15,220 bases of DNA from Myxococcota bacterium (GTDB lineage: Bacteria > Myxococcota_A > Bradymonadia > UBA7976 > UBA1532): positions 1 to 15,220 of the forward strand of contig JAYZEG010000085.1 in assembly GCA_036337435.1 (NCBI GenBank). The letters run 5' to 3'. A program made the translations under genes and the position numbers. Under the pieces are notes generated by a model. That model made no database searches. It was not told the DNA's origin and saw nothing but the letters and a program-made list of their open reading frames with translations. Shown piece after piece: positions 1 to 15,220 of the stretch. How positions within the stretch are numbered: the stretch's first letter is position 1; every line of letters begins with the position of its first letter.

Positions 1-389
1 CGTCGACGATCGTCAATGGTCCAAGAAAAGCTCAACGACCGCATCAAGAGGTATTTTGTTATTTCCGATGCGCCGTCCTTCAATCCGGCCAGCACATGCT
101 CGAAAGCACCCCGGTCGTCCCCTTTTAATCCGGCTAAGCGACTGGCAATGCTGTGACTCGCTGCGCTTTCAGGGGCGATTTTCATTGCATCACTGACCGC
201 TGATTCGAGTCCTTCCGGGCTTTCAGCAGAAAAATAGCTTTCCAGCGCAGTGAGGAGCGACGCCTGGTCCGAGACCGCAGCGGGTTTTAGAGTCAGCGGG
301 ACGCGAGTTTGCTGTGCACCACATCCGCAGAGTAAAAGCGTAAGAAAGACCCATTGGTTCGGAGACCTACCCACTGAAAACCTCTTCAA
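1..389 (-). CDS. Putative lipoprotein, N-terminal part (runs off the window start)
   Basis: Not in the ORF track; my translation. Open frame from TTG at 389 (alternative GTG at 374) to the window edge: MKRFSVGRSPNQWVFLTLLLCGCGAQQTRVPLTLKP... Basic N-terminus, hydrophobic stretch and lipobox-like LCG|C, then helical-looking sequence. Starts 4 nt after the stop of the upstream co-oriented gene. Confidence 0.75.
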   Translation of the reverse strand, partial: MKRFSVGRSPNQWVFLTLLLCGCGAQQTRVPLTLKPAAVSDQASLLTALESYFSAESPEGLESAVSDAMKIAPESAASHSIASRLAGLKGDDRGAFEHVLAGLKDGASEITKYLLMRSLSFSWTIDDRR

Positions 390-393
390 TTTG

Positions 394-906
394 CTACAAT
401 CCTTTTAACCGATTCACCAAGGCCACCGATCGTGACTGCACTCGCGGATCAAACGACGTGAATTCGAGGCCTTTGAGTCGCTCAATGAATCGGTTCTTGC
501 GTGGCAACGGCAAGCCTCGATCTAAATATTCCCCAATCATCGTCAACACATTGGCCAGCACTGCGTCCTTTGGGTGCTGAAGTGCCTGAAGCCAAAACTC
601 AGGGTCTTCCGGCATATCAAATTTCTTTAAGAATTTATCTAAGGTTCTCTCCAGGGCACGCCCCCCCTTGGACTCTCGAATATCCCGCAAGAGCTGTTGG
701 CGTTCGCTCGGCCCTTTATCATGGCCTGCCGGCAATTTGTCCTTCAGGTGTGCAGGGACCACGCCCTTGTCGAAAAACGCGTCCAGCTGTCGTTTATAAT
801 TGGCTGTCGCACTCTCGACTCGAGCTTGCCGCTGACCCCCCGAGGGCCGATCTGACCGCCCGTCTCTTTGTCGATCGATTTCTTTCCAGCTTTTCTTGTC
901 GGACAC
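394..906 (-). CDS. Hypothetical basic, helical protein (170 aa)
   Basis: Track ORF 394..978 re-started at GTG 906 because AGGAG lies 8 nt upstream. Begins (M)SDKKSWKEIDRQRDGRS; rich in Lys/Arg; no catalytic motif recognised. Confidence 0.8.
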   Translation of the reverse strand: MSDKKSWKEIDRQRDGRSDRPSGGQRQARVESATANYKRQLDAFFDKGVVPAHLKDKLPAGHDKGPSERQQLLRDIRESKGGRALERTLDKFLKKFDMPEDPEFWLQALQHPKDAVLANVLTMIGEYLDRGLPLPRKNRFIERLKGLEFTSFDPRVQSRSVALVNRLKGL

Positions 907-1014
907 CCGTCTCGCTCCTATTTTTGTGCTCGGCCACAACATAACTCGACAAACCAGCGGCAGCAACGGGCTAATCATTGAAAGCAGCCGTCTTGTGACC
1001 GACAGAGTCGTCCA

Positions 1015-1045
1015 GGCATCTAGTACAAGCCGGCCTCTAGATGCC
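1015..1045. repeat. Perfect 9-bp inverted repeat GGCATCTAG-N13-CTAGATGCC in the divergent intergenic region
   Basis: Read directly: 1015-1023 is the reverse complement of 1037-1045. Function unknown. Confidence 0.7.
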
Positions 1046-1057
1046 CACCCCCCTCGT

Positions 1058-1096
1058 GAGCCGTGAATTGAAATGAGATGACGGCTCGATTAAGGT
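1058..1096 (+). promoter_or_regulatory. Candidate sigma70-type promoter for the MoxR-VWA operon, overlapped by a 7-bp inverted repeat
   Basis: TTGAAA (1068-1073), 17-nt spacer, TAAGGT (1091-1096). GAGCCGT (1058-1064) and ACGGCTC (1081-1087) bracket the -35 box. Confidence 0.4.
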
Positions 1097-1122
1097 TTTG
1101 TGGTATGTAGCCGCCCTATGAG

Positions 1123-1962
1123 ATGGAGAAAGCTGTGTTTACTAATTTTACCGGAACGGAAAACTACATCGCGTCGATCGAACTCCGAGAGGCGGTGAAC
1201 GTCGCGCTGGCTCTGGAACGCCCCCTCTTGATCAAGGGTGAGCCGGGAACCGGCAAGACCCTACTTGCCGAGGCGGTCCGTGATGCCCTAAAGCGGCCCT
1301 TACACACCTGGCATGTGAAGAGTACATCCCGTGCCCAGGACGGCCTGTACGTCTACGATGCTGTCCAGCGACTACACGACAGTCGATTCGGCGATAAAGA
1401 TGTCGGAGACATACGCCAGTACATTCGGTTTGGCGCCCTAGGGCAGGCGTTTGTTAACGAGGAAGAGAGCATCGTCCTCATCGATGAAATCGATAAGGCA
1501 GACTTGGAGTTTCCCAATGACCTGCTACACGAACTCGACAAAATGGCGTTCACGGTTCTGGAGACCGGCGATAACCATGTGGCCCAGCATCGCCCACTCG
1601 TTATCATCACCAGCAACAATGAGAAGGAATTACCTGATGCGTTTCTCAGGCGGTGTATCTTCCATTTCATTGCGTTCCCCGATGAAGACCTCATGGCCGA
1701 TATCGTTAGGGTTCATCACCCAAAGGTAAAGCAAACGCTCATCGACGAGGCCATCGCCCGTTTTTACTGGCTCCGGAACATCCCCGACCTTCGCAAAGCA
1801 CCGTCTACCAGCGAGCTCATCGACTGGATCAGTGCGCTTATTAAAGGCGGGGTGACGGAAGATGAACTGGCTCATCGCGTCCCGTTCCTAGGGACTTTGC
1901 TCAAAAAAGAGCAAGACTTAGACACCTTGGAAAGGTTCAAAAACCGTCGAGGACGGATGTAG
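1123..1962 (+). CDS. MoxR-family AAA+ ATPase (resembles the PA2707 subfamily)
   Basis: Walker A GEPGTGKT, Walker B VLIDEIDKAD, sensor/Arg-finger TSNNEKELPDAFLRRC, subfamily-like WHVKSTSRAQDGLYVYDAVQRL and PSTSELIDW; followed 2 nt later by a VWA gene. Confidence 0.95.
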   Translation: MEKAVFTNFTGTENYIASIELREAVNVALALERPLLIKGEPGTGKTLLAEAVRDALKRPLHTWHVKSTSRAQDGLYVYDAVQRLHDSRFGDKDVGDIRQYIRFGALGQAFVNEEESIVLIDEIDKADLEFPNDLLHELDKMAFTVLETGDNHVAQHRPLVIITSNNEKELPDAFLRRCIFHFIAFPDEDLMADIVRVHHPKVKQTLIDEAIARFYWLRNIPDLRKAPSTSELIDWISALIKGGVTEDELAHRVPFLGTLLKKEQDLDTLERFKNRRGRM

Positions 1963-1964
1963 GC

Positions 1965-3167
1965 ATGAGTGCCGCAATACCAAGCCCTCCCCAAGCAGGA
2001 AGGCTGTTTCTCGAGTTCTTTTATTTGGTCCGAAGCGTGGGCATACCCGCATCCAGCCGGGAATGGCTGATGTTCTCAGAAGCCCTAGAAAAGGGGCTTG
2101 TGGCAGCCGACTTGTACCGTTTTTACGCGATAGCGCGAGCGACTCTGGTCAAAAGCGAGCAACATTACGATCTCTTCGACCAGTGTTTTACCCATTATTT
2201 TGCGGGTGCCGATAAACCTCGAGCGTTTCAAAAAGCTCTCGACCAATGGCTTCAAACACCAATCGAAATGCCCCAACTGTCGGAGGACCAGTTGGCGTTA
2301 CTGGAAAAACACGACCTGGAGACCCTTCAGAAGATGTTTGAAGAACGTCTTGCGGAGCAAAACGAGCGCCATGACGGGGGCAACAAGTGGATTGGGACTG
2401 GAGGTACAAGCCCCTTTGGACACGGTGGGCAAAATCCTGCTGGCATTAGAGTGGGTGGTGCTGGTGGCGGCAGAAGTGCGGTGCAGATCGCTGCGAAGCG
2501 GCGCTTTAGGTCGTACCGAAATGACTTGGTTTTGGACACGCGACAAATTGGAATGGCACTCCGAAAGCTTCGGCGCTTAGGTCGCGAGGGCGCACGCACT
2601 GAAATCGATATTGATGAAACCATCAGTGCAACGGCAAAAAATGCTGGTGATTTGGATATTTGCTTTGCGCCGCCGAGAGAAAATCGCTTGAAAGTGTGCC
2701 TTCTCATGGACGTCGGAGGCTCCATGGATCCCTTCGCCCGCCTGGTCAGTCAGCTGTTTAGCGCGGCCCATCAGGCCACACACTTCCGTGAATTCCACTC
2801 GTTCTATTTTCACAACTGTATCTACGAAGAAGTCTATCGCCACGCGCATCTAAAAGACGGTATGTCGACAGTCGAGCTGATGCGCTGGCTGCAACCAGAG
2901 ACACGTCTGATCGTGGTCGGTGATGCTCACATGGCACCTTACGAGCTGGTCTCAGTCTATGGAGCCATCGACTATTGGCATCAGAATGAAACCTCTGGTC
3001 TCGACTGGTTGAAGAGGCTCGATGGCCACTTTAACAAATGCGCATGGCTAAACCCCATTCAAAAGCGCTACTGGGGTCATCCCACAATCCGCATGGTCTC
3101 TGAAGTCTTTCCCATGCATGAACTCACACTGAAGGGGCTCGAGGGTGCCATTAGCGACCTTCATTAG
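1965..3167 (+). CDS. VWA-domain (CoxE-like) partner of the MoxR ATPase
   Basis: MIDAS-like LMDVGGSMD, Gly-rich HDGGNKWIGTGGTSPFGHGG, YFHNCIYE, VGDAHMAPYEL and WLNP motifs; typical operon position after a MoxR ATPase. Confidence 0.92.
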   Translation: MSAAIPSPPQAGRLFLEFFYLVRSVGIPASSREWLMFSEALEKGLVAADLYRFYAIARATLVKSEQHYDLFDQCFTHYFAGADKPRAFQKALDQWLQTPIEMPQLSEDQLALLEKHDLETLQKMFEERLAEQNERHDGGNKWIGTGGTSPFGHGGQNPAGIRVGGAGGGRSAVQIAAKRRFRSYRNDLVLDTRQIGMALRKLRRLGREGARTEIDIDETISATAKNAGDLDICFAPPRENRLKVCLLMDVGGSMDPFARLVSQLFSAAHQATHFREFHSFYFHNCIYEEVYRHAHLKDGMSTVELMRWLQPETRLIVVGDAHMAPYELVSVYGAIDYWHQNETSGLDWLKRLDGHFNKCAWLNPIQKRYWGHPTIRMVSEVFPMHELTLKGLEGAISDLH

Positions 3168-3183
3168 GTTGAAAATGGCCGAC

Positions 3184-3483
3184 TCAGACTCGGAAATTCC
3201 ATGCTTTCTTGAAGGCTACGATCGGCTGTAGTACCTCGTCGACATAAGCGCGGTGTCTCGGATGAACGATGTAGTCGTCGACCTCTTTTGCTGTCCGGAA
3301 TAGAACTTCAAGCATGAGGTCCCAAGAACGCCGTGATTCCCCCTCCAATGTTTGCGAAACATGGACGGATTGTACCTGAGGAATCTCGCCGAAGAATGCG
3401 ATGGTTTTGGCGGTGAAGTCGGCCAACCAGTCTGCTGAAATCGTCGATTCATGAAGCTTAAGCAAGACTATTCTCTTAATCAT
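3184..3483 (-). CDS. Dabb family (stress-responsive A/B barrel) protein, 99 aa
   Basis: Re-started at ATG 3483, which has a strong AAGGAGG SD. MIKRIVLLKL N-terminus, IPQV, and F....EVDDYIVHPRH motif match the Dabb pattern. Confidence 0.88.
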   Translation of the reverse strand: MIKRIVLLKLHESTISADWLADFTAKTIAFFGEIPQVQSVHVSQTLEGESRRSWDLMLEVLFRTAKEVDDYIVHPRHRAYVDEVLQPIVAFKKAWNFRV

Positions 3484-3624
3484 CTCTGCCTCCTTTTTGA
3501 CGTCATGTTTCACTCAGCTAGACAGACCGGTGAAAGCAAGATGTTAACGCTACGGTGAAGCCCCTAAAAGCACAAAGGGAAAAGAATGCCAACTCACGTG
3601 TTTCGTGCGCCGTGTGGGCCACCA

Positions 3625-4416
3625 TCAACTGGAGGGGTACTCGGACTCGACATCAGCCAGGGCTTGCCGACAGGCTACCCAGACCTTCACTCGCCCAGTG
3701 CGCAATAGATTCTTCTCTAGCGCATGGGCCAAATCGCTCTTGGTCGATGCCGGTAGACTCCGACAACGACGGGCTAAGCGCTCGGCCGTCATTGGCGATA
3801 CAAGTGCGAATTGCGTCCCGACTTCATTGGCAAATTGAGGTGCCCGGAAAAGAAAATCAGGAATCCAACTTATGGCATCAGGCAGCTCTGATGGGTCTAA
3901 CGACCGCCAAGCGAGCCCCTGCAGAGACGGTCGTTGCGCCGCATGCGCTTTGGCACGGCCAAGGATCGGGTCTCCGGGTATACAGGTCGTCAAGAGGAAT
4001 TCTATGGCCAACCAGCTCAATGAATAGCCGGCCATCTCCCCGAGCGGACGCTCCCTTTCGACAGCCTCAAAACGGAGTTTTCGTGTCTCACTCTGACCTC
4101 GGTCTCCGCCGACCATATACCCATCAAACAACTCAGGGTCTGCCTCGACTCGTTCCATCAGGGCATGCCTGAGTCCGCGAAGTTCGAGTCGTTCAGCCGT
4201 GTACAAGGCCAATTCTAGACATGTCCCCTCGCCCGTCTCAATAAAGTGAGTGACAAGGTCTTCGAGGGCGTTCGCCAAACCGTTATCCGCGATTGCCGCG
4301 CGCAGCAGCCATGGCCGCTTATCCGGCTGCAGCCGCAATGTGGCCTCCATATCGCTGGCATCTGGAGTCTTGACGCCCTCGAATAAAAAAGGTGTATAGC
4401 TATGTCGAAAGTCCAT
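3625..4416 (-). CDS. Hypothetical protein (about 263 aa, Ala/Leu-rich, probably helical)
   Basis: Long ORF filling the space between neighbours. Start moved to ATG 4416 (MDFRHSYTPFLFEG) because the longer track start overlaps the divergent gene at 4499. No family recognised; start uncertain. Confidence 0.7.
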   Translation of the reverse strand: MDFRHSYTPFLFEGVKTPDASDMEATLRLQPDKRPWLLRAAIADNGLANALEDLVTHFIETGEGTCLELALYTAERLELRGLRHALMERVEADPELFDGYMVGGDRGQSETRKLRFEAVERERPLGEMAGYSLSWLAIEFLLTTCIPGDPILGRAKAHAAQRPSLQGLAWRSLDPSELPDAISWIPDFLFRAPQFANEVGTQFALVSPMTAERLARRCRSLPASTKSDLAHALEKNLLRTGRVKVWVACRQALADVESEYPSS

Positions 4417-4498
4417 TGAAACGCTTTCTTGAGATGGGCATGCTAGGCATCGAGAGCAGCCTTTACTCACCAGACGACCAAATAGCCAGGAGTCCATA

Positions 4499-4801
4499 AT
4501 GCATGACACAGGCCATCAAGGACTATTCGCATTCGATGGAGACCGATTTCATCATCTGATCCAAGAGACGCCAGAACTCGATCACGCCGCCTGGTTCGAA
4601 AGTATAGGCCTGCCCTCATCCGGTCCAGAATACGATGCCATCCTTCGGGGTAAAGTGTATCATGATATCGACAGTGATAAGATTTATCTGGGCTATTATG
4701 GGACCGCATACCTGAGCAATCAGCGATATGAGACCATCGCGCGTATCTTCGAGCTCGACGAGACGCGAATTGTCGAGAAAATGCTGAACGAGCCATACTA
4801 G
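4499..4801 (+). CDS. Small acidic hypothetical protein (100 aa)
   Basis: AGGAG 7 nt before the ATG; protein-like composition (DHAAWF...EYDAILRGKVYHD); ends 5 nt before the convergent J-protein stop. Confidence 0.78.
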   Translation: MHDTGHQGLFAFDGDRFHHLIQETPELDHAAWFESIGLPSSGPEYDAILRGKVYHDIDSDKIYLGYYGTAYLSNQRYETIARIFELDETRIVEKMLNEPY

Positions 4802-4806
4802 CCGGC

Positions 4807-5751
4807 TTAACTCTCCTCGACCGTCTCGGTTTCATCGATAACATTTGCCACGTAGTACGGTTCCATTTCCCGCGCCAACCGGAGACATTCATCGTCAAGG
4901 GTATCGGGTATCTGTATCATCACCCGGACATAGAGATTTCCGCGTCCACCCTTTTGAGTCATTCCTTTGCCACGGAGACGAAGTTTCTGACCGCTGCGAC
5001 AACCGCTGGGCAGGGCTAACCTCACCATGCTGCCTTCCGGTGTCAGTACGTCAACCTTTCCACCTTCCATTGCCTGTAGGACCGAAATAGGCAAGTCGAG
5101 ATAAAGGTCAGCACCGTCCTGGTCAAAGCCGGGGGGCGACGCGACTCGGATGACGGCAATGAGGTCACCTGAACCGCCGTGTCCGCGTTCCCCCTTCCCT
5201 TTCAGTCTCATCTTCTGGCCATCGGCGACCCCTGGTGGAATCTTCAACGTCACGGCAAAGCGACCCAAGCGAACGTCTCGCCCAACCAAGGCATCACGTA
5301 GACTGATCGTCACCTCCTGTTCGATGTTGCGACCCCGTCGCTGTACCCGAGGCCCGAAGCCACCTTGGCCACCAAAACCACCTTGGCCAAAAAGGCTGCC
5401 CAGTATGTCTTCGAAGTCGCCGAAGCCACCAAAGCCTCCATGGCCCCCCTGAAAACCGCTGCCAAAACCCTGCCCAAAGCGACCAGCCCACTGTTGATAA
5501 TTACGGGCTGCATCTGGATCAAAGCCATCCCGGAGGCCGTCGGGGCCAAACTCATCGTAGGCTGCCTTTTTCTTGGTATCACCAAGCACAGCAAAAGCCG
5601 CGGAAACAGCCTTAAACTTTGACTCGGCCCCGGGGCTTGAATTTCGATCTGGGTGGTATTCCCGTGCCAGCCGTCGGTACGCCTTTTTGATTTCATCATC
5701 TGATGCCGTACGACTTACGCCCAAAATGCCATAAAGGTCTTGATCTGCCAC
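4807..5751 (-). CDS. Class B J-domain co-chaperone (DnaJ/CbpA-like, no zinc finger), 314 aa
   Basis: Re-started at GTG 5751 ((M)ADQDLYGILGV). J-domain with YHPD, G/F-rich linker with DFEDILGSLFG, no CxxCxGxG repeats, C-terminal domains KIPPGVADGQKMRLKGKG and SGQKLRLRGKG...GNLYV. Confidence 0.93.
   Translation of the reverse strand: MADQDLYGILGVSRTASDDEIKKAYRRLAREYHPDRNSSPGAESKFKAVSAAFAVLGDTKKKAAYDEFGPDGLRDGFDPDAARNYQQWAGRFGQGFGSGFQGGHGGFGGFGDFEDILGSLFGQGGFGGQGGFGPRVQRRGRNIEQEVTISLRDALVGRDVRLGRFAVTLKIPPGVADGQKMRLKGKGERGHGGSGDLIAVIRVASPPGFDQDGADLYLDLPISVLQAMEGGKVDVLTPEGSMVRLALPSGCRSGQKLRLRGKGMTQKGGRGNLYVRVMIQIPDTLDDECLRLAREMEPYYVANVIDETETVEES
5360..5389. repeat. Short direct repeat (CCACCTTGGCCA x2, 18-nt period) encoding GQGGFG repeats of the G/F linker
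   Basis: Copies at 5360-5371 and 5378-5389 inside the J-protein gene. Confidence 0.7.
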
Positions 5752-5783
5752 AATTTCATCCGTTGTTCGCACTAATGAGGGCC

Positions 5784-5812
5784 AATCTAAGCACCAAATG
5801 GCGCAAGGGCAA
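5784..5812 (-). promoter_or_regulatory. Candidate sigma70-type promoter for the J-domain gene
   Basis: Minus strand TTGCCC (5812-5807), 17-nt spacer, TAGATT (5789-5784), about 30 nt upstream of the GTG start. Confidence 0.3.
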
Positions 5813-5903
5813 CCCCACAAAGCGGACTCTCTCCTCAATGCGAGGTTTACTGTGGGTCCAATATTCGGTAGGACTCAAGAGTATTGCCCGAGGGAGAGCC
5901 ACA

Positions 5904-6986
5904 GTGAAACGCTACAGTGCATACGAATTCCCAGAATACATCGACTGGACGCCCGATGACGAGGCCCAAAGGGAATTTCGACAACTGGTGGCAGCTGGGC
6001 CTCGAGCCGCGGTGATCGCCGACATTACAACAGAGAAACTGCTGGACCTCTACCGTGGGTTGGTCGCCGCACGCCTTCATGATATCCAACTCAAGCGTTG
6101 GGTCAAACAAGGTGTCATCACAAAAGCATGGCTTGGAAGTGGCGAAGAGGCTGTTACGGTCGGAACGTGTGCCGCTCTTGACGTGGGTGACGCTGTCGGG
6201 CCCATGATTCGAAATGCTGCGGCACTCATCGAACGGGGCGTTCCTCTTCTCGACTGTTTCTCATCATACCTTGGCACGACGGACAACATCACCAATGGAC
6301 GAGACCTACACATCGGCGACCCGTCGCGCGGTGTGATTCCTCCAATCAGTCACGTCGGCGACCTCGTCCCCGTAATGACGGGCTGCGCTTTGGGTTTTAA
6401 ACTTCGCGGAGAAAAACACGTTGCGCTCACCTGGACAGGCGATGGGTCAACAGCGACGGGCGCGGTCCACGAAGGCCTTAAGATGGCCGTCGCTTTGAAA
6501 GCACCTCTCATCTGTGTGATCCAAAACAATCAAGTCGCCCTGGGTACCCGTGTCGACGATGGTGAGGTTGGCAATTTCAGTGCGTATGGTGATGCATACG
6601 GCGCAAAGCTAATCGAGATGAACGGCAACCACATTCTTGACGTTTACGCCGCATCACTGGAGGCAGTAGCAGCCTGTCGTGATGAGTCTGGCCCGGTGAT
6701 TATGGTCGGCCGAACATTCAGGATGGGCGGACATGCCACACACGATGAGCGAGAAGCGCGGGAGCTCTTCGACGATGAGCTGTATGCCTATTGGGGTAAG
6801 CGCGATCCAGTTGGTATGTACGAGACATGGCTGATTGAAGACCGCGGTCTATCGAAAGCTCAATTGACAGACATCGAAGACCAAACACACGCAGCGATTG
6901 AGGCTGCGGCTCGTCTGGCGGTGTCACGTCGAGACTCCCATGCACCGGATCCGGCGACACAGCGCGATGGTGTCTACGCGGAATGA
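5904..6986 (+). CDS. TPP-dependent 2-oxoacid dehydrogenase E1 alpha subunit (substrate uncertain), 360 aa
   Basis: Re-started at GTG 5904 after GAGGGAGAG. TPP-binding motif GDGSTATGAVHEG...IQNN, GSGEEA, active-site loop FRMGGHATHD and W..RDP motif. Confidence 0.92.
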   Translation: MKRYSAYEFPEYIDWTPDDEAQREFRQLVAAGPRAAVIADITTEKLLDLYRGLVAARLHDIQLKRWVKQGVITKAWLGSGEEAVTVGTCAALDVGDAVGPMIRNAAALIERGVPLLDCFSSYLGTTDNITNGRDLHIGDPSRGVIPPISHVGDLVPVMTGCALGFKLRGEKHVALTWTGDGSTATGAVHEGLKMAVALKAPLICVIQNNQVALGTRVDDGEVGNFSAYGDAYGAKLIEMNGNHILDVYAASLEAVAACRDESGPVIMVGRTFRMGGHATHDEREARELFDDELYAYWGKRDPVGMYETWLIEDRGLSKAQLTDIEDQTHAAIEAAARLAVSRRDSHAPDPATQRDGVYAE

Positions 6987-8065
6987 GCAACACGACCGGC
7001 CGATTATTTAGAGCGACCACATTTGGTGAGTCGCACGGCGAGATGATGGGCGTTGTCATCGATGGATGCCCACCAGGGGTCGTCATCGACCTGCCGCAAG
7101 TGCAAGCCGACCTGGACCGCCGCCGGCCTGGCCAAACACACCTGACCACGCCACGCGATGAGCGCGATACGCTGCGGGTTGTTTCAGGGCTCTTTGATGG
7201 AAGCACAACGGGCTCACCATTGACGATTGTTTTCGAAAATCAAGACACACGGTCCCGAGATTATCAGGGAACTAAAGACCTATTTAGACCAGGCCATGCA
7301 GATTATGGCTACCATATGCGCTATGGGGTCCGAGACCATCGTGGTGGTGGCCGTGCGAGTGCAAGAGAAACCATCTCTCGTGTCGCTGCAGGTGCAATCG
7401 GCCGCCAAATACTGCAGGATCGATTTGACATCGATGTCATCGCTTGGGTGAGTTCAGTCGGGTCAATCGAAGCCGCCATCGATGTGATGGAGATCTCTCG
7501 AGCGGATGTCGATTCACATCCCACCCGATGTCCCGACCTCCGAGCTGCAAAGGAAATGGAAGCCAACATCCAAGCGGCAAAAGCAGCGGGTGACACCCTC
7601 GGCGGCTGCGTTTCTGCCGTGGCGAAAGGTGTGCCAGCCGGATGGGGAGCACCGGTCTTTGACAAATTCGAAGCTGATTTAGCGAAAGCATGCCTGTCGT
7701 TGCCGGCTTGCAAAGGATTCGAAATTGGCTCTGGTTTCGCGGGAACACAGATGAAGGGCAGTGACCACAACGATGAGTTTACACTCGATAATGGTCTCGT
7801 CAGCAGTCCAACAAATCACGCCGGCGGCGTTTTGGGTGGCATTACATCTGGACAGCCGATCCAAATCAAATGCGCTTTCAAGCCCGTATCGACTCATTTC
7901 AAGCAGCAACGGACCGTCACCAAAGACTTAGACCCTGTTGAGTTCAAGAACGTGGGGCGTCATGACCCCTGCGTCCTACCCAGGGCGGTCCCACTGGTGG
8001 AAGCCGCTCTTTGGCTTACCTTGACCGACCACTACTTGATTACGCTCTCACTCGGTCGCTCTTAG
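6983..8065 (+). CDS. aroC: Chorismate synthase
   Basis: TTFGESHG, RRRPGQ, RPGHADY, RGGGRASARET, KGFEIGSGF, GGVLGGIT, FKP and GRHDPCVLPRAVP signatures; ATGA overlap with the E1-alpha stop. Confidence 0.98.
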   Translation: MSNTTGRLFRATTFGESHGEMMGVVIDGCPPGVVIDLPQVQADLDRRRPGQTHLTTPRDERDTLRVVSGLFDGSTTGSPLTIVFENQDTRSRDYQGTKDLFRPGHADYGYHMRYGVRDHRGGGRASARETISRVAAGAIGRQILQDRFDIDVIAWVSSVGSIEAAIDVMEISRADVDSHPTRCPDLRAAKEMEANIQAAKAAGDTLGGCVSAVAKGVPAGWGAPVFDKFEADLAKACLSLPACKGFEIGSGFAGTQMKGSDHNDEFTLDNGLVSSPTNHAGGVLGGITSGQPIQIKCAFKPVSTHFKQQRTVTKDLDPVEFKNVGRHDPCVLPRAVPLVEAALWLTLTDHYLITLSLGRS

Positions 8066-8094
8066 ATCCACTCATTGGGGGCAGACAAGCGGCC

Positions 8095-9501
8095 CTATTC
8101 AAAACATGCGTTTACTTGTTCGCAGGAGTCCGTCTCCGTCAAGCAGGCCCAAGACTGAGATGAAATTGCATCTTCGCCCTGTGCGACGGCACAGAAATAG
8201 GGGCAAACGCCGTTTGTGGCCAATGGATTTCTGTCCGGCAAACACGGCACCAGTGCCGCGCAGGCTGCATCGCAGACATCATAGTCATTCTCGGGCATGT
8301 CCAAGCAGATGTTAATCAGCGCGCCTGACCCGTCCATCTCACCGCTGTCGATTGTGAAATACGTTGTAAAACCGGTCGCCATCTCAGAGCCACAGTCATT
8401 CTGCGCGACAGCGGCAGCCACATCGGCTTCAGCCAACGTGTTGTTGTCGACCAAGAACTCACACAGGCCACTGACAGCCTCTCGTACACCGACTTCGAGC
8501 CGGGCACTTGCGGGGCATGTGTCAGCAATGCAGCCCTGAACTTGGTCGCCGAGACCTCGGCAGCTTTCAAGGCGCGGTGGTGGTTCATTTTCATCGAAGC
8601 AAGCAAATACATCGCCACATTGATTCTGCTCTGAGACGCAATTCCACTGGCTCGTGGATGGCACGCCCTCAGTCGCAGCACCACAGAGGAAACGGCAGGT
8701 TGGATAATCACCGAAGCCGCCTCCATCTTCGGGCCGCGTATCCTCAGGAATGCATACATCTAACTGCTGGCATGCAGCGTCACAAACAGCCTCTGAATTC
8801 ACCGGCCCGTTTGAACAAAGGGGTACGAGACCACCGGACCCATCGGGCCCCTCTTCAGCAAGAATAAAACCCAGGACCGACGTCACCAGAATATTGTTAC
8901 ATTCGGCATCAGCTAAGTCAGACAACTGGCTTTCTTCGAAATCGCCTCGCTGCACGGCCGATGCACAGATACTGCCAAAGAGAAAGTCAACGCCCGAACC
9001 AATGGCCCCTGCATTTGGACAGACATCGGCAAAACAGCGACCTGCAAGTGCCACGTAATCATCACAAATTGGGTTCATTGCGACCATTTCAGAGCCGCAG
9101 CGGTCGGCAATGGCAGGAGACCGCTCCGACACAGCACTGACAATGTCAGCGCATTGGCCGTCCAACGACACCTGTTCAATGAAATCATCCTGAGCGGCGC
9201 AACTCATACGGCAAGCGGCTCGGAGAACGATGGCATTGGCAGACGGACACACATCATCGGCACAATCAACGAATCGATCGCAGATGGAATCACACGTTGC
9301 AGGTTCTCCCGTTCCCCCGTCACCGGTTTGCGTCATCATATCCGCGTTTGAGGTCGCGTCAGCCGAATCACCATCGACCGATGTCCCATCCATCTCAAAA
9401 CCTGCATCGACCGTCGGTGTAGCCGAACCCACGCTGCTGTTTTCGTTGGTACAGCCGAAAAAGCCAGCTGCGATCATCACTAGTAATACACATATTCTCA
9501 C
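8095..9501 (-). CDS. Cys-rich acidic lipoprotein with an internal tandem duplication (468 aa)
   Basis: GTG start with GGAGG SD; signal peptide ending FFG|C17; D/G/S/T-rich linker; one 8-Cys module then two homologous 14-Cys modules. Confidence 0.88.
   Translation of the reverse strand: MRICVLLVMIAAGFFGCTNENSSVGSATPTVDAGFEMDGTSVDGDSADATSNADMMTQTGDGGTGEPATCDSICDRFVDCADDVCPSANAIVLRAACRMSCAAQDDFIEQVSLDGQCADIVSAVSERSPAIADRCGSEMVAMNPICDDYVALAGRCFADVCPNAGAIGSGVDFLFGSICASAVQRGDFEESQLSDLADAECNNILVTSVLGFILAEEGPDGSGGLVPLCSNGPVNSEAVCDAACQQLDVCIPEDTRPEDGGGFGDYPTCRFLCGAATEGVPSTSQWNCVSEQNQCGDVFACFDENEPPPRLESCRGLGDQVQGCIADTCPASARLEVGVREAVSGLCEFLVDNNTLAEADVAAAVAQNDCGSEMATGFTTYFTIDSGEMDGSGALINICLDMPENDYDVCDAACAALVPCLPDRNPLATNGVCPYFCAVAQGEDAISSQSWACLTETDSCEQVNACFE
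8101..9066 (-). repeat. Protein-level tandem repeat: two modules of about 155 aa (aa 146-302 and 314-467)
   Basis: Manual alignment: CFADVCP/CIADTCP, DGSGGLVPLC/DGSGALINIC, VCDAACQQLDVCIP/VCDAACAALVPCLP, CRFLC/CPYFC, WNC/WAC, CGDVFACF/CEQVNACF; 14 Cys in each, in the same order. Confidence 0.88.
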
Positions 9502-9570
9502 GGGCCTACCTCCACGCGCCGAGACTCGACGGCCATACTAAAGCATATTCAGAGTGTCTATGTCGATGAT

Positions 9571-10551
9571 TTAGGATGCGTTTAAATCCCGTTCCAACAT
9601 GCGTTTCAATGGGCGCAGGGCGGCGACTCTAATGTCTTCGGGCACGTCGATAGCAGGTGCGAGATTATGCAATGCAGAGTAGAGCTTTTCGAGTGTGTTC
9701 AATTTCATGTGAGGACATTCATTACAGGCACAGTTGGCCTCAGGCGGGCCCGGAATCAACGTCTTGTTCGGCGCTGCTTTTGCCATCTGATGCAGAATGC
9801 CAGATTCGGTCAAAACAATAAATTTATCTTCGGGCGAATCACACACATAGTTGAGCAGTGAGGAGGTCGAACCAATATGATGGGCATGTCTTAAAACCTG
9901 GGGTTCACATTCAGGATGCGCGATGACTTTAGCGTCTGGATGCCGGACCTTCAATTGCACCAACTTCTTCTCGCTGAACACTTCGTGAACCTGACACGTA
10001 CCCTGCCACAGCACCATATCGCGCCCAGTTTGCTCCATGACATATCGACCTAAGTTACGGTCAGGCGCAAAGATCAAGGGTTCATTCGGATCAAAGAGAT
10101 TGACGATGTCAACGGCATTACTTGACGTACAAATGACGTCGCTCAACGCCTTAACGCCCGCCGAGCAATTGATATAACTGACGACTTTGTGTCCAGGGTG
10201 AGCCTCTTTAAACGCCTCTAGTCGATCAGCCGGACACGCATCTGCGAGAGAACAACCCGCAGCCAAATCCGGGAGCACTACCGTCTTATCGGGATTCACA
10301 ATTTTGGCTGTTTCAGCCATAAAGTGCACACCAGCAAACACGATAACGTCAGCGTCGGTCGTGGCAGCCTTTCGGCTGAGTTCGAGAGAATCACCGACGA
10401 AATCTGCAATATCCTGAATGTCCGGATCTTGATAATAGTGAGCCAGAATGATGGCGTTTTGCTTTTTCTTTAATTCGTCGATGGCATCGAACAAATCAAT
10501 CTGTGGATCGATTTCGTGCCCGTCAGAAATTTGGATAAAGCGATCGTTCAC
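9571..10551 (-). CDS. nadA: Quinolinate synthase A ([4Fe-4S])
   Basis: [73 protein letters not shown]; three cluster Cys present; GTG start with AGGAG. Confidence 0.98.
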
Positions 10552-10561
10552 GGAACGTCTC

Positions 10562-11416
10562 CTACTCTTGACTCAAAGCCCGTACGACAACTGAGGCGGC
10601 CGTCAAACCGAACGTTCCCGTGACAAAGGATGCACTCCCATCAATACGGACACGCCGATCACATGTTAGCAAGCCATTTTCGCCTTGTGGGCAGACACAG
10701 ACAAAGCCGGTCCCCTCATCGTAAGCAAGGTCTTTTGGAGCCTGCACGAATTCAGTGCTGTAAACAGCCGGTATGCCCCACGGGGCTCGTCCTCGGGGAA
10801 AACCGTGTTTTTCTCTCAGGATTTTACGGACGTTGACGGCCATTCGACAATTCTTCGTTTTATTGAGGTCGACCACGTCTATTTGTGTCGGATCCCAACG
10901 GCCCGCAGCCCCCATCGACGAAACCAGTGGCACCCCCCGCTGCTTACAGGTTGCGATAAGGTGGCATTTAGCCGTAAATTGGTCGATGGCATCGACGACG
11001 AAGTCGGGATCGCCATCCAGCAATTCATCAGAGCTTTCCGCCTGGTAAAACAGCTTTATTGCTTCCACGGTCGCCATGGGATTTATTCGTCTTAGTCGGT
11101 CAGCCATCAGTTCGACTTTCGGCTTGCCTATGTTGCCTTTCATCGCGTGAAGTTGCCGATTGCAATTGGTGACACAGACATCGTCAAAATCGACGATACG
11201 AATCCGGCCCACGCCGCTTCGGACCAGTGACTCTGCCGTAAAACTGCCGACACCGCCAATACCAAATACGATAACGAAGCTATCCATGAGTGACGCCATA
11301 CCATCATCGCCGGTCAACCGGGCCATCCGGTCAAACCGTCTATGTAGTTTGTACGATTTACTCTGTTTTGAGGCGGCGTCGGGTTGAGCCGCGTTATGAA
11401 TTTCTATGCCGTTCAT
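10562..11416 (-). CDS. tcdA: tRNA threonylcarbamoyladenosine dehydratase (ThiF/E1-like superfamily)
   Basis: [74 protein letters not shown]-type SD. Confidence 0.93.
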
Positions 11417-11456
11417 GCCTCACCTCGCAAGTCACTGAACACGATTTCTGAATTCA

Positions 11457-12239
11457 TCAGGACCACGCCCGGTCTCCTAAAAGAACCTCACAATTGGTCG
11501 TTGATTGTCTCAAAATCTCGTTTTCATCACACCCCTTTAGTTGGGCGATATGCTTCGCCACATCAATTACCACAGTTGGCTCGTTTCGGTCACCCTTGAT
11601 GATCGGCTGATCCGGGGCGTCACTCTCAATCAGTAGGCGGTCGCATGGGACTGCGTTCGCAAGGGCATGAGCGCGCCCTGGATTCATTCGCATTATGCTG
11701 GTCCCGAAGCTGATACATAGGCCCCATTTCAAATAAGCTTTCATCACCTCTACTGAGCCGCTGAAGCTATGGACCATGCCTGTACTCGGTCGATAGTCGC
11801 TCAAAATCTCTAGGGCGGCTCCATGACAACCAACAATGTGGAGAATGAGAGGGCTGCTGAGGTCTTGAGCCAGTTCGATCTGTTTCCTGAACGCAAAGCG
11901 CTGCAAGTCCAACGAGGACTTCGGAGCAAAGTGCTTATCTAGTCCGGTTTCGCCAATCGCCGCTGGTGGTCTGGACGATGAAAACAAGTCTGGGATAGAG
12001 CGAATCCATCGCTCGAGCTCCGCACGGTTACTTTTTGAAACCGCGACTGGATGAATGCCGGCTGCCCAAGCAATGCCTGGATGTGCACGAGCCAGCCGTT
12101 GCTGCCTTGCCCATCCCGCGTGCTCAACACCGCTGACCAAAAAGCGATTTATACCTCGCTGAGCGGCTCTATCGATCACCGCCACCCGGTCCGGCTCGAA
12201 GGCGTCAAAATCGAGATGACAATGGGCATCGATGTACAT
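11457..12239 (-). CDS. tatD: TatD family metal-dependent nuclease/hydrolase, 260 aa
   Basis: Re-started at ATG 12239 (MYIDAHCHLD). Motifs GIHP, AIGETGLD, LILH, HSFSGS and LLIESDAPD. Which TatD paralogue is not resolvable. Confidence 0.92.
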   Translation of the reverse strand: MYIDAHCHLDFDAFEPDRVAVIDRAAQRGINRFLVSGVEHAGWARQQRLARAHPGIAWAAGIHPVAVSKSNRAELERWIRSIPDLFSSSRPPAAIGETGLDKHFAPKSSLDLQRFAFRKQIELAQDLSSPLILHIVGCHGAALEILSDYRPSTGMVHSFSGSVEVMKAYLKWGLCISFGTSIMRMNPGRAHALANAVPCDRLLIESDAPDQPIIKGDRNEPTVVIDVAKHIAQLKGCDENEILRQSTTNCEVLLGDRAWS

Positions 12240-12354
12240 GGGCGTCGTTTTTTTCCACGAGGCTGGTCTGAACCACACCATATATGGGACCATTCAACTG
12301 TGATAACAAGACAATCCATTTAAAAAAACACTCGGGGCCGATTCCAGACGACCA

Positions 12355-13200
12355 ATGCACTTAAAACGACTCATATTGTATTTTATGATCACTCTATTGA
12401 GCGGATGCTTTGATCGATTAAGCGGTGCCACGCCAACCATTCGGACTGTTTCCCCGAACCCCATGGTTTTAGGCGAGCGGGCTACGGTGAAAGGTCTGTT
12501 ATTTCCAGCCGATTCAAGGGTTTTCGTCGATGGACAGAACGCGACTGTAGAAGATATCAGCGGGCGAGAAATCACCATTCGTGTGCCGAGACAGGCTGCT
12601 GCGGGTCATCGTCTCTTACTTCTCCGCAGTCCTAGCTTAACAAATTCAATGACCTACCCTGTGGAGATTGTCTCGCGGAACATGAACTCAAGTCCCGATG
12701 CCCAACAACCAGTATCTGCTGATTTTGGTACAGCGTTACCTCAAGACCAATTTACAGATGCGGGCATCCCAAACCGTTTGCTCGGTGTTTTCTCGCCGGA
12801 TCCCAGTACGGAGGGAGCAGTGACCATCTCTTCCATTGATCAAGTTGACGGACAGCTTCAACTCAGAATCGATCTACCGGAGTCGGCCGGCGAGATTTGG
12901 GGCGTTGCTTTTCATCTTGTATATGACCCCAATATTATGGTTTTCAGGTCGGTTTCAAACAGAGACACATCACGGGCTTTCCAGATCAAAGAAGCACCCA
13001 TAGGCCGACTCCTGGTTGGCTGGATTCTCCAAGCTGAGGACCAAAGACAATTGGACATACATTTCGACTTGGTTGGACGCGGTGAAGCCCGACTCGACTT
13101 TCCGATTCATCACAGAACACTCAGGGACGAAAACAACAACCCCGTCCCTAATGTCTCATGTCTGACCGGCAGCGTTCGAGTCCGAGAGGTAAACCCATGA
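12355..13200 (+). CDS. Lipoprotein with an IPT/TIG domain and a C-terminal cohesin-like beta-sandwich (281 aa)
   Basis: Lipobox LSG|C18. PTIRTVSP...GERATVKG..F.....VFVDG...ITIRVP (about 12433-12670) fits IPT/TIG. Low-complexity P/D/Q linker. From about 12814: LQLRIDL...IWGVAFHLVYDPNIMVF...GRLLVGW...LDIHF...GEARLDF...LRDENNNPV...GSVRV fits a cohesin pattern. CDS is secure; domain calls are moderate. Confidence 0.8.
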   Translation: MHLKRLILYFMITLLSGCFDRLSGATPTIRTVSPNPMVLGERATVKGLLFPADSRVFVDGQNATVEDISGREITIRVPRQAAAGHRLLLLRSPSLTNSMTYPVEIVSRNMNSSPDAQQPVSADFGTALPQDQFTDAGIPNRLLGVFSPDPSTEGAVTISSIDQVDGQLQLRIDLPESAGEIWGVAFHLVYDPNIMVFRSVSNRDTSRAFQIKEAPIGRLLVGWILQAEDQRQLDIHFDLVGRGEARLDFPIHHRTLRDENNNPVPNVSCLTGSVRVREVNP

Positions 13201-15026
13201 AGTGCTGTCTGACCCTCGTCATGTTGCTGGCATATACTGCACATGGGCAGGAGAGACGGCTGGTAAAAGACTTCTGCGGCCTGAGTGCGCCCGCAATCGA
13301 GCCATCTCAAGAAAAACGAGCGGACCGTGTCGGCGACTACGACATAATCAGCCTCGACGTAACGTTGTCGGAGTCAGGCGCGGGGTTCTACACCCGTGCG
13401 AGTTACCAAATCATCGTGTTTGCTCTTCTCTCAATCGAGTCCGAGATCTCGTTTTTCGTACCTGGACTCGATGTTGATGAAGTCACTATGCGAGACGAGA
13501 GCGGTGCCCGGACGCCAGCAAACTTCCGTCCGGATTCTGATACTGGACTGCTCTATGTCGAGCTGGATGATGGTCTGGCAGCGGACGCCATTGTGACTTT
13601 TGAGCTGACCGGTTCCCTTGCTCTCGAGCGGGTCTGCACTGGACCCAGAAACTGCATTTTAGAGGGCGACTACCAACATCTGGCGACAGCTGGCTGGTAT
13701 CCAATGAGCGATACGTATGCAACGGATGACCGTTTTCACATCCGTACATCACTGCGAGAGTCAGTGGGGTCCAACGCCGTCGGACGAACCATTGGCATTG
13801 TCGCTCCGGACGATGAGGGGAACGTGTACTTTCAAACAGCCACAAGAACCTACCTTCCAGCCGTTACGCGAGGCCCGTACAGCGTCATACAGGGGGAAGC
13901 CGGGTTCGAATTTTTCGCACCTCAAGATGTGAATCGCGTCGCTTTCAACGGGGCCCTAGCAGAGAGTCGACTCCTCTACGAGAGCTTGTTCGGCGACATG
14001 CCCTTCGCCCCCATCCAAGTCGCCACCATCAGCGACGAAGCCCGAGTGGCAATCGGAGCCCAAGCCCTCATCCTCGTGCCCGCTGGTCTATGGCGCATAT
14101 CCAGAGACGACCCATTTTTTGAAACCGTGCTTGAAATCTTGAGTCATGAACTGGCGCATCAGTATTTCTTTAACTTGGTTGCCATTACGGACCCACGCGA
14201 CGGTTGGTTATCCGAGGGATTTGCGGAGTATGCGGCGACCCGTGCCTCGGAGTTCCGGACCGGCGAACAGACCCATATCATGCGAAATTATTGGGCCTAC
14301 ATGCTCGCCGCCAACGGACGTAACGATGCACCGGTGTACGGCTTAGCCGTGCGTGATAGCCCCATCGTATATGAAATCATGTATCAAAAAGGCAGCTCGC
14401 TCCTCGAAATGCTCCGCCGCCGACTCGGCACGCAGCCGTTTGACCAAGCACTGTTGGACTACACCCAACAATTTGCCAATCAGATCGCGACGACAGCAGA
14501 ATTCGAAACTTTTCTTGTCGCACGCTTCCCCGAGGCGAATATCGAGTCATTTTTCCAGAACTGGGTCTATCTGAGCGGCTTTCCAGAGATGACGCTTCGG
14601 GTGACCAGGCAGCGATTGGACAGCGGTCAATTGACCGTGGAAACATCCGTCAGAGTGCCAGCGGGTACCGATGGACTTAGTGAACCAATTCCCGTTCGGA
14701 TCATCGGAAATGGCCCCCCTGTAGACACCATCCTAAATGCCGACGCAACCGAACAGGCCATCAGCTTGGAAAGTGCCGCCCACGGTCTTCAAATTGACCC
14801 TGATATAACCTTCTTTCGCCGTATTTATGCCGAACCACGAACGGACATAAACTTAAACGGGGTCGTCGATGGAATGGATTTACTAGACGTCACCTATGCG
14901 ACCAACTGGCCAACCCCAGGCCTGCACTGGGATGAGTTGGCTGACGTCAATGGAGATGGAATCACAGACACCCTAGACATAGACGAAGTCATCGATCAAC
15001 TCGGCACGTTTAACGGCCCTCGCTGA
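13197..15026 (+). CDS. Secreted M1-family (gluzincin) zinc peptidase with a C-terminal dockerin-like domain (609 aa)
   Basis: Re-started at ATG 13197 (GAGG SD, ATGA overlap). Signal peptide ending AHG|Q; HELAH-x18-E (14145-14216, WLSEGFAEY); YQKG...LEMLR catalytic Tyr motif; FFQNWV...GFP; IDPD; two Ca-loop repeats DINLNGVVDGMD (14844) and DVNGDGITDTLD (14943). Confidence 0.92.
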   Translation: MKCCLTLVMLLAYTAHGQERRLVKDFCGLSAPAIEPSQEKRADRVGDYDIISLDVTLSESGAGFYTRASYQIIVFALLSIESEISFFVPGLDVDEVTMRDESGARTPANFRPDSDTGLLYVELDDGLAADAIVTFELTGSLALERVCTGPRNCILEGDYQHLATAGWYPMSDTYATDDRFHIRTSLRESVGSNAVGRTIGIVAPDDEGNVYFQTATRTYLPAVTRGPYSVIQGEAGFEFFAPQDVNRVAFNGALAESRLLYESLFGDMPFAPIQVATISDEARVAIGAQALILVPAGLWRISRDDPFFETVLEILSHELAHQYFFNLVAITDPRDGWLSEGFAEYAATRASEFRTGEQTHIMRNYWAYMLAANGRNDAPVYGLAVRDSPIVYEIMYQKGSSLLEMLRRRLGTQPFDQALLDYTQQFANQIATTAEFETFLVARFPEANIESFFQNWVYLSGFPEMTLRVTRQRLDSGQLTVETSVRVPAGTDGLSEPIPVRIIGNGPPVDTILNADATEQAISLESAAHGLQIDPDITFFRRIYAEPRTDINLNGVVDGMDLLDVTYATNWPTPGLHWDELADVNGDGITDTLDIDEVIDQLGTFNGPR

Positions 15027-15220
15027 TTTTGAATCGAAGCATGTATTGCCCCAGCTGACTGTCCATAGGGACCCGTAAGGATAATTTAAAACGGCCTGTT
15101 TCATCGGTTTTACCACCACCGAGAACAACCCGGTCAAGACCCTGTTTAAGGGCATAAGCTTCGATATACACCCGGGCTGCCCCACGGTTCAGGCCCGTTT
15201 TTTTGACCATACCTTCGACG
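15010..15220 (-). CDS. C-terminal end of a gene entering from beyond the window (beta-rich, possibly Ig-like tail)
   Basis: Frame stays open to the window edge (...VEGMVKKTG...); GKTDETGRFKLSLRVP...GQYMLRF has a beta-sandwich-like pattern; TAA at 15012-15010. Confidence 0.65.
   Translation of the reverse strand, partial: VEGMVKKTGLNRGAARVYIEAYALKQGLDRVVLGGGKTDETGRFKLSLRVPMDSQLGQYMLRFKISEGR

Follow-up and report, generated by a model that had tools for sequence, protein, structure and literature searches.

The window analysed here is a 15,220-nucleotide stretch (positions 1 to 15,220, forward strand, of contig JAYZEG010000085.1) from a Myxococcota bacterium, corresponding to contig C85 of the host genome G000, which measures 4.4 Mb and is 87% complete. 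Near its end lies a pair of overlapping genes that comparison across genomes and modelling support well as a real pair. Gene 1 encodes a lipoprotein, as judged from its lipobox, that ends in a divergent cohesin fold, and gene 2 encodes a putatively secreted M1-fold zinc peptidase that ends in a dockerin. The two products are likely to act as a dedicated two-component tether, in which the cohesin lipoprotein would retain the peptidase at the cell envelope.

Organization of the gene pair

Gene 1 (12355-13200, 281 amino acids (aa)) and gene 2 (13197-15026, 609 aa) lie on the forward strand and share the letters ATGA at 13197-13200, where the stop codon of the former overlaps the start codon of the latter, with a Shine-Dalgarno-like GAGAGG upstream (13184-13189). 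This arrangement suggests translational coupling, as had been proposed by an earlier reading of the letters and open reading frames (ORFs) of the window (hereafter, the sequence-only reading). Indeed, an NTGA overlap of the two genes is present in 16/16 loci of the host family, with ATG (7), GTG (8) or TTG (1) as the start codon of gene 2. A longer ORF of gene 2, starting at 13158, was dropped because the conserved overlap favours 13197. Every other sequence feature named in that reading was likewise recovered at its position, namely the lipobox, the IPT/TIG-like domain, the flexible linker and the motif GVAFHLVYDP in gene 1, and the signal peptide (putative, from hydropathy), the intact HExxH-x18-E site and the two 12-residue Asp/Asn-rich loops in gene 2. 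The features are as follows, with the evidence for each in brackets.

12355-13200 (+): gene 1, 281 aa, lipoprotein bearing one cohesin-fold domain (ORF; AlphaFold2; homologue directly upstream of gene 2 in 16/16 family loci)
12355-12408 (+): lipoprotein signal peptide and lipobox LLSG-C18 (sequence pattern; Cys conservation)
12427-12681 (+): IPT/TIG immunoglobulin-like spacer, aa 25-109 (PF01833 above cut-off; VIA fold match)
12682-12774 (+): flexible linker, about aa 110-140 (predicted local distance difference test, pLDDT, below 50 at aa 117-136; length variable in the alignment)
12775-13191 (+): cohesin-fold domain, aa 141-279 (VIA; PDB profile matches; ESM Atlas; complex model)
13184-13200 (+): Shine-Dalgarno-like GAGAGG and ATGA overlap (sequence; putative translational coupling)
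13197-15026 (+): gene 2, 609 aa, putatively secreted zinc peptidase of the M1 fold, ending in a dockerin (Pfam; model; VIA)
13197-13247 (+): putative Sec signal peptide, aa 1-17 (hydropathy; hydrophobic N-termini in homologues)
13338-13925 (+): beta-sandwich domain I of the M1 fold, about aa 48-243 (modelled secondary structure)
14046-14060 (+): position of the GAMEN motif, here VAIGA (alignment to puromycin-sensitive aminopeptidase, PSA)
14145-14384 (+): catalytic core H317, E318, H321, E340, Y396 (invariance; PF01433)
14583-14834 (+): beta-sandwich domain III of the M1 fold, about aa 463-546 (strands in the model, aa 464-546; profile)
14841-15002 (+): dockerin, aa 549-602, with predicted calcium loops D550-D561 and D583-D594 (PF00404; profile; conservation)

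Conservation of the pair across the phylum

The pair is conserved. Among the 28 genomes of the host family, gene 1 is found in 16, the same 16 carry the best gene-2 matches, and in every one of these loci gene 1 immediately precedes gene 2. Some M1 match is present in 24 of the 28 genomes, and in the 8 outside the pair-bearing set it is weak (E 3e-12 or worse). Association is also seen in a species collection in which the best 80 of 536 M1-like loci were examined: all 12 loci with a dockerin match adjoin a cohesin match, a 13th is cut by a contig end, and of the remaining loci one has weak TIG matches only and 66 have none of these domains. In the seven distant loci with the pair, the cohesin gene is upstream in four and downstream in three. 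Adjacency thus persists despite reversed gene order, and it also persists where the TIG domain is lost.

The same pattern is present in a sample of 401 genomes of the phylum, in which the cohesin profile matched 73 places in 68 genomes and the dockerin profile 111 places in 93 genomes. Of the cohesin places, 64 have a dockerin place within 3 kb on their own strand (cohesin upstream in 50, downstream in 14; 62 genomes); 49 of these 64 belong to genomes that supplied no seed sequence, and 15 gave seeds. Six of the nine unpaired places are, by their coordinates, so close to a contig end that a partner dockerin would fall beyond it. The co-occurrence that was one of the tests set by the sequence-only reading therefore holds in the family and in the phylum, with a patchy spread: the pair is present in 28/29 genomes of one family and in 0/34 of another, and the dockerin profile, in that query, found nothing in the 82 genomes of the other seven families of the class. 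A third word-based protein search returned no additional full-length members.

Twenty loci were also picked by hand for spread, 14 of them adjacent pairs and six from the 26 dockerin-only genomes. All 14 adjacent pairs consist of an M1-dockerin gene and a cohesin lipoprotein gene. Three of the six dockerin-only loci actually hold the pair, which the scan had missed (one cohesin match is weak, E 6e-4), and in the other three the dockerin belongs to a non-M1 protein with no cohesin match within 5 kb. These last (L232:2614-4518, L233:112-2079 and L234:995-3112) come from genomes without a cohesin match, and two of them have the dockerin close to the N-terminus, with a weak match to the choice-of-anchor Z repeat at the C-terminus. 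No third gene is common to the pair across 15 loci compared, where neighbours are shared by close relatives only.

A lipoprotein with a divergent cohesin fold

The C-terminal domain of gene 1, which includes GVAFHLVYDP at aa 183-192, is a divergent cohesin fold according to its AlphaFold2 model (mean pLDDT 87.5, 50-sequence alignment), that is, a jelly-roll beta-sandwich of about 140 residues. In VIA structure comparison, aa 152-279 match the solved cohesin 6kgc best (Z 13.1, root-mean-square deviation (rmsd) 2.9, 127/144 aligned), followed by 2w1n (Z 12.8), 4uyp (Z 12.4) and 2xdh (Z 12.1), with an rmsd of 2.8-2.9 over 124-127 aligned residues for 6kgc, 2w1n and 4uyp. All rows from Z 13.1 to 9.9 are cohesins, and the first non-cohesin appears at Z 9.6. 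In the ESM Atlas, aa 140-281 reach a feature score of 0.93 with cohesin clusters and a template modelling score (TM) of 0.79 in structure, and the best family-bearing matches (10/10) fall in one family or clan. A profile of 15 sequences searched against the PDB places the Clostridium perfringens NagJ cohesin chains at the top (E 0.017), and a broader profile of 17 sequences finds cohesin-containing chains in the first 14 of 16 rows (best E 0.0065). Four lines of evidence thus point the same way, though they are not all independent. A Foldseek search with the whole of gene 1 had two-domain adhesins at the top at an rmsd of 16-21; it was set aside for the domain-level comparison because such rows reflect two consecutive beta-sandwiches. 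The cohesin assignment made by the sequence-only reading is thus borne out by fold and profile and not by the PF00963 search that it had suggested, and the domain is filed here as a cohesin-fold domain rather than as a PF00963 member.

The lipobox Cys is kept in 15/15 complete family copies and is invariant in 17/17 alignment rows, and 17/17 distant cohesin ORFs begin with a hydrophobic stretch followed by [GAS]C. The lipobox is followed by the TIG domain (PF01833, aa 27-93, 29.1 bits against a cut-off of 20.9), whose fold matches 1qhp (VIA Z 13.3, rmsd 1.7, 80 aligned), and then by the linker, which in homologues is rich in Pro, Asp, Ala and Gly. The TIG domain is missing from many distant members (including L059, L061, L062, L076 and L117) and is optional, with lipobox, linker and cohesin as the constant parts in the sequences compared.

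An M1-fold peptidase that ends in a dockerin

The fold of gene 2 was modelled from a 19-sequence alignment with a mean pLDDT of 80.2 and a predicted template modelling score (pTM) of 0.83. The model aligns with tricorn factor F3 over 483 residues (VIA Z 35.7, rmsd 3.4) and with 6a8z (Z 34.7), and Foldseek matches M1 enzymes at E 1e-28. In addition, Peptidase_M1 (PF01433) covers aa 309-456 with 70 bits against a cut-off of 27.7. The zinc site comprises H317-E318-x-x-H321 and, after a spacing of 18 residues, E340; the zinc ligands, catalytic Glu and Tyr (Y396) are invariant in 23/23 aligned members. The N-terminus is hydrophobic (mean hydropathy 2.1 over aa 3-14), and in domain I Cys147 and Cys153 are each kept at 90% or more in the 23 rows. 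Between the signal peptide and domain I there is a segment (13248-13331 (+), aa 18-45) that could be a propeptide; pLDDT is below 50 at aa 12-41, though homologues show a partly conserved pattern in this segment.

The core of an M1 peptidase foreseen by the sequence-only reading, namely the fold and the zinc site, is therefore present, and the GAMEN motif and the domain IV of an aminopeptidase are missing. At the position of GAMEN, none of the 23 rows has a Glu in column 286, and column 287 is Gly in 19, Ser in 2 and Ala in 2, again with no Glu. The lenient pattern G[GA]xE occurs in 0/23 aligned members and in 1/21 further distant members, as compared with 21/29 other M1 matches (3 more show GAMEN) and 3/3 other M1-like genes of the host genome. 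The profile of gene 2 matches IRAP and APN as far as profile position 540-553 or thereabouts. Domain III then precedes the dockerin in the manner of an X module, and the protein stops with the dockerin, some 60 residues past domain III. All pepN equivalogs scored far below cut-off. As for the domain I Glu that also contacts the amino end, Glu180 in PSA, no confident position was found in gene 2, and neither its presence nor its absence is claimed. A study on PSA describes the GAMEN Glu as gripping the amino end of the substrate and domain IV as closing off the active site; the enzyme requires this domain to fold in Escherichia coli (10.1101/2023.05.30.542994). Since both the GAMEN Glu and the domain IV lid are missing, gene 2 is not filed as an aminopeptidase, and its product, as far as its sequence tells, is probably an enzyme with an open cleft and not a classical aminopeptidase.

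The dockerin itself was recognized by Dockerin_1 (PF00404) at aa 549-602, with 23.7 bits against a cut-off of 22.9 (25.1 bits in the genome search), which agrees with the duplicated loops pointed out by the sequence-only reading, and the best PDB matches of a dockerin profile are cellulosomal dockerins (2y3n_B, E 4.8e-6; 6kg9_A, E 9e-6). The loops begin at D550 and D583, 33 residues apart, with Asp or Asn as predicted ligands at positions 1, 3, 5, 9 and 12 of each (D550/N552/N554/D558/D561 and D583/N585/D587/D591/D594), and the helices of the model span aa 559-568 and 592-601. D550, D558, D561, D583 and D594 are invariant in 23/23 homologues, which share 20-43% identity, and invariance of five calcium-loop Asp residues at such identity is more than chance would be expected to give in an alignment of this kind. 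Position 5 of the first loop is Ser or Thr in 14/23 homologues. The two repeats are asymmetric: the first is conserved at G559 (22/23) and L563, and the second is variable at loop positions 10-11, which suggests a single binding mode through helix 1.

Predicted docking of the two partners

The cohesin (aa 138-281) and the dockerin (aa 541-609) were modelled together with two calcium ions. The complex scored 0.89, as compared with 0.01 for the best of three controls, which were unrelated proteins and not other cohesins or dockerins; contacts agree between runs to at least 92%, and the pLDDT of the partners is at least 77. The mark set for such models is reached by 116/157 solved pairs and by 2/215 mismatched ones, counts that hold only roughly here. 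A confident interface, as the sequence-only reading anticipated, is therefore predicted, and the model supports binding of cohesin and dockerin to each other. None of the three outcomes that this reading had named as refuting it (a non-cohesin fold, no confident interface or calcium-dependent binding, no co-occurrence) was seen in the computations. The predicted docking face of the cohesin is centred on G183, A185, G222, R257 and N261, and the closest contacts join A185 and G222 to G559, L562 and L563 of the dockerin. A185 is the sole cohesin residue that is invariant in 50 rows, and 6 of the 15 most conserved cohesin positions, A185 included, fall within the modelled interface, which comprises 21 of the 139 residues.

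One cohesin and one cargo in the host genome

A Pfam scan of the host genome gave three dockerin matches, of which only gene 2 is above cut-off; thus, the check for other dockerin proteins that had been proposed returned gene 2 alone. The other two candidates (L002 and L003) were rejected as single loops below cut-off. Custom profiles, one of them drawn broadly from 387 database domains, found no further cohesin or two-loop dockerin in 29,718 ORF segments of this 87% complete genome. A weak cohesin-profile match on G000:C23 (E 0.035) was discarded, as it covers half of the model and adjoins no dockerin. In the phylum sample, exactly one cohesin is found in 63/68 genomes with a cohesin match. 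The sequence-only reading had described the pair as a minimal cellulosome-like complex built on a scaffold; the pairing of a one-cohesin anchor with a dockerin enzyme stands, and 'cellulosome-like' and 'scaffold' are overstated because the genome holds one cohesin and one dockerin cargo. Within the completeness of the genome, the pair would be a two-component, one-to-one tether and not a cellulosome.

Some loci depart from this simple arrangement. At L063:5038-9497 (+), one cohesin lipoprotein gene is followed by two tandem M1-dockerin genes. Second dockerin matches are found in further one-cohesin genomes, at L173 (G429:C307), G417:C42 and G213:C165, and L173 is an M1-dockerin with no cohesin match in its 3.2-kb locus. 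A 1095-codon frame with IPT-like domains, an internal dockerin and no M1 domain (L154:4259-7543 (+), G017:C18) is a possible second cargo in a member of the host family. In the wide library, large proteins with 6-14 cohesin-like repeats (P0041, P0070, P0074 and others) score against the cohesin profile, and 9 of 149 matches to this profile also bear a dockerin-like stretch. In the host genome, L002:1066-2904 (-), on G000:C95, is an ORF for a lipoprotein-like product of 612 aa, in which two CxxCH heme-binding motifs accompany a single calcium-loop-like stretch.

Proposed mechanism and alternative explanations

We propose that both proteins would be produced from one coupled transcript, as the gene overlap suggests, and exported by the Sec system, as suggested by their signal peptides. 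Gene 1 would be lipidated at Cys18 and would present one cohesin on a flexible stalk, and the dockerin of gene 2 would take up two calcium ions and dock one-to-one on this cohesin, mainly via its first helix as modelled. Docking would hold the peptidase at the cell envelope, where its likely job would be the local breakdown of peptides or proteins. The sequence-only reading had the peptidase tethered for digesting protein or prey, a purpose for which no evidence was found here; nor did this analysis find evidence of a link to predation or prey digestion. As to location, a slight preference may be given to the outer surface or outer-membrane vesicles over the periplasm; this is an argument rather than a result, resting on the consideration that a periplasmic enzyme would need no tether to be retained. 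The host genome encodes LolA and three secretins. A wider proposal, which we hold to be somewhat unlikely, is that the pair represents a phylum-wide class of envelope proteases, in which an M1 scaffold without lid and without grip on the amino end has turned into an endopeptidase, or another enzyme that is no aminopeptidase, with an open cleft, which a calcium-dependent cohesin lipoprotein would present on the outer surface or the vesicles of Gram-negative bacteria.

Several points weigh against the tether as drawn here. Pfam Cohesin (PF00963) has no match in gene 1 and none across the host genome, and it matches 4/15 family members, weakly (best E 0.0062). The modelled complex may pass by likeness, since cohesin-dockerin complexes have already been solved. 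The alignments used for conservation also fed the complex model, and mean conservation is 0.55 at the interface and 0.47 elsewhere, which is not significant (permutation p 0.077). The co-occurrence counts come from related genomes that are not independent and are to be read as descriptive rather than as statistics, and the host genome is incomplete. The residue that follows the lipid Cys is variable (Asp in 4/15), so that no sorting signal can be read in gene 1. Finally, L182 (of L182-L185, genus g69) has GGGES near the GAMEN position, where the Glu has possibly been kept or regained.

Three other explanations were considered. One is that the complex forms and the lipoprotein mainly controls the enzyme, as a chaperone of folding or export, an inhibitor, an activator that replaces the lid, or an adaptor to a periplasmic substrate, in the way that the lipoprotein NlpI brings the protease Prc to its substrate in E. 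coli. The dockerin occupies the exact place of M1 domain IV, and a strict one-to-one coupling suits a dedicated partner; domain IV, in turn, covers the active site and is required for PSA to fold in E. coli (10.1101/2023.05.30.542994). However, the lipid anchor and the long linker are kept in all members checked, as would suit an anchor, and some genomes have two M1-dockerin genes per detected cohesin (L063, G429), so that we regard control as the main function as unlikely. It is very unlikely, in our judgement, that the two proteins do not bind each other, the genes being linked for co-expression, the cohesin fold serving as an adhesin or carbohydrate-binding module and the dockerin as a calcium-binding stabiliser. 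Such an explanation would fit the identity of 10-17% to most matched cohesin structures, the adhesin beta-sandwiches that come next at VIA Z 9.6-9.2, the lack of a Pfam Cohesin match in gene 1, and the three dockerins on non-M1 proteins without a cohesin match in 5 kb; it is opposed by the adjacency in both gene orders, by the invariant small A185 and the glycines on the modelled docking face opposite the near-invariant G559, and by the gap between the model of the complex and its controls (0.89 against 0.01).

Least probable of all is that the lipoprotein anchors a larger assembly of the cellulosome or planctosome kind, whose multi-cohesin scaffolds and several dockerin enzymes would be encoded at other loci. 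A few relatives do have extra dockerin proteins (G017:C18 and the second M1-dockerins), multi-cohesin proteins of the wide library score on the profile, though without genomic context, and the host genome is incomplete. Set against this are the lack of a second cohesin or two-loop dockerin in the host genome (87% complete), the single cohesin of 63/68 cohesin-positive genomes and the lack of a third gene common to the 15 loci compared. The dedicated tether thus remains the reading that we prefer.

Genomic surroundings and expression

Upstream of the pair, a divergent block with TatD and ThiF-family genes lies at 9571-12293 (-), and its synteny is limited to close relatives; a further gene of the block we take to be quinolinate synthase-like. 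Further upstream, 8095-9501 (-) encodes a 468-aa Cys-rich protein with a lipoprotein-like start, which has no Pfam family and a weak, sub-cut-off match to Lepto_8Cys; ORFs related to it are present at five other family loci. A promoter scan called 7 promoter-like sites against 2.5 expected, spread over both strands and none of them informative, and a terminator scan called no terminator-like site downstream of gene 2. In one seawater metatranscriptome, a fraction of 0.08 of the words was present, with two 151-base contigs within gene 2, which is too little to speak of expression or habitat.

Comparison with known systems

Cohesin-dockerin docking is best known from the cellulosomes of Gram-positive anaerobes, and to our knowledge many non-cellulosomal copies of either domain have no known partner. 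The pair described here names its cognate partners by gene coupling and is kept across many families of one Gram-negative phylum, and thus offers a minimal and directly testable non-cellulosomal pair. Standard annotation misses it, as gene 1 has no Pfam Cohesin match. Also of interest are an M1-fold enzyme that has neither the aminopeptidase motif nor the lid, notably for its specificity, and a possible natural route for enzyme display on Gram-negative envelopes. A description of a cohesin lipoprotein paired with an M1-dockerin was not found in the literature searched, which was mostly open-access, and the main text of two Myxococcota genome surveys mentions neither cohesin nor dockerin. Neither its individual parts nor peptidase docking as such is new, and the pair is a variant on them.

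Among characterized anchors, the closest in design are OlpA and OlpC of Clostridium thermocellum (PDB 3ul4 and 4dh2; VIA Z 10.9 and 11.0), single-cohesin cell-surface proteins that are anchored by surface-layer homology (SLH) modules and bind a dockerin enzyme directly. Unlike them, the pair described here has a predicted lipid anchor, belongs to a two-membrane bacterium (LolA and three secretins), would have one co-transcribed peptidase as its cargo and comes without a detected cellulosome. Docking outside cellulose degradation is also represented by C. perfringens NagJ (GH84C; 2jh2, 2ozn, 2w1n) and by Archaeoglobus fulgidus 2xdh, whose cohesins are the closest profile matches (E 0.0065-0.017) and resemble gene 1 in fold (VIA Z 12.8 and 12.1, respectively). 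The NagJ cohesin is a module of a glycoside hydrolase, whereas the cohesin of the present pair forms a lipoprotein of its own, with a coupled peptidase gene, in many families of one phylum.

On the side of the enzyme, gene 2 shares domains I-II(-III), HEXXH-x18-E and the catalytic Tyr with M1 enzymes such as PSA, tricorn factor F3, IRAP/ERAP1 and M1dr. The two-domain M1dr of Deinococcus (6a8z) likewise lacks the C-terminal domains. In contrast to M1 aminopeptidases, the dockerin replaces domain IV and the GAMEN Glu is missing, where 6a8z aligns a Glu.

Dockerin peptidases have been described before. According to two reports, binding to surface-anchored cohesins has been measured for a cysteine peptidase of Ruminococcus flavefaciens, an S8 peptidase of C. 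thermocellum and a peptidase of R. bromii (PMC12484212, PMC4611034); in these accounts they are minor cargo among many, in Gram-positive anaerobes, none of them is M1-fold and no dedicated coupled anchor gene is described. Adjacent cohesin and dockerin domains have been noted in syntrophic sulfate reducers (PMC10553843). Peptidase docking by cohesin and dockerin has also been proposed from genomes, for the planctosome of Planctomycetes (Andrei et al. 2019, PMC6461901) and for a cellulosome-like complex of Ca. Stygibacter, of the Cloacimonadota (Williams et al. 2021, PMC8542988). Those systems rely on scaffolds of 2,210 aa or 3,755 aa, on an adaptor or on tandem cohesins, and on cargo of the M12B/M14 or S8/C25 type, as compared with the 281-aa lipoprotein and the single M1-fold cargo of the pair described here.

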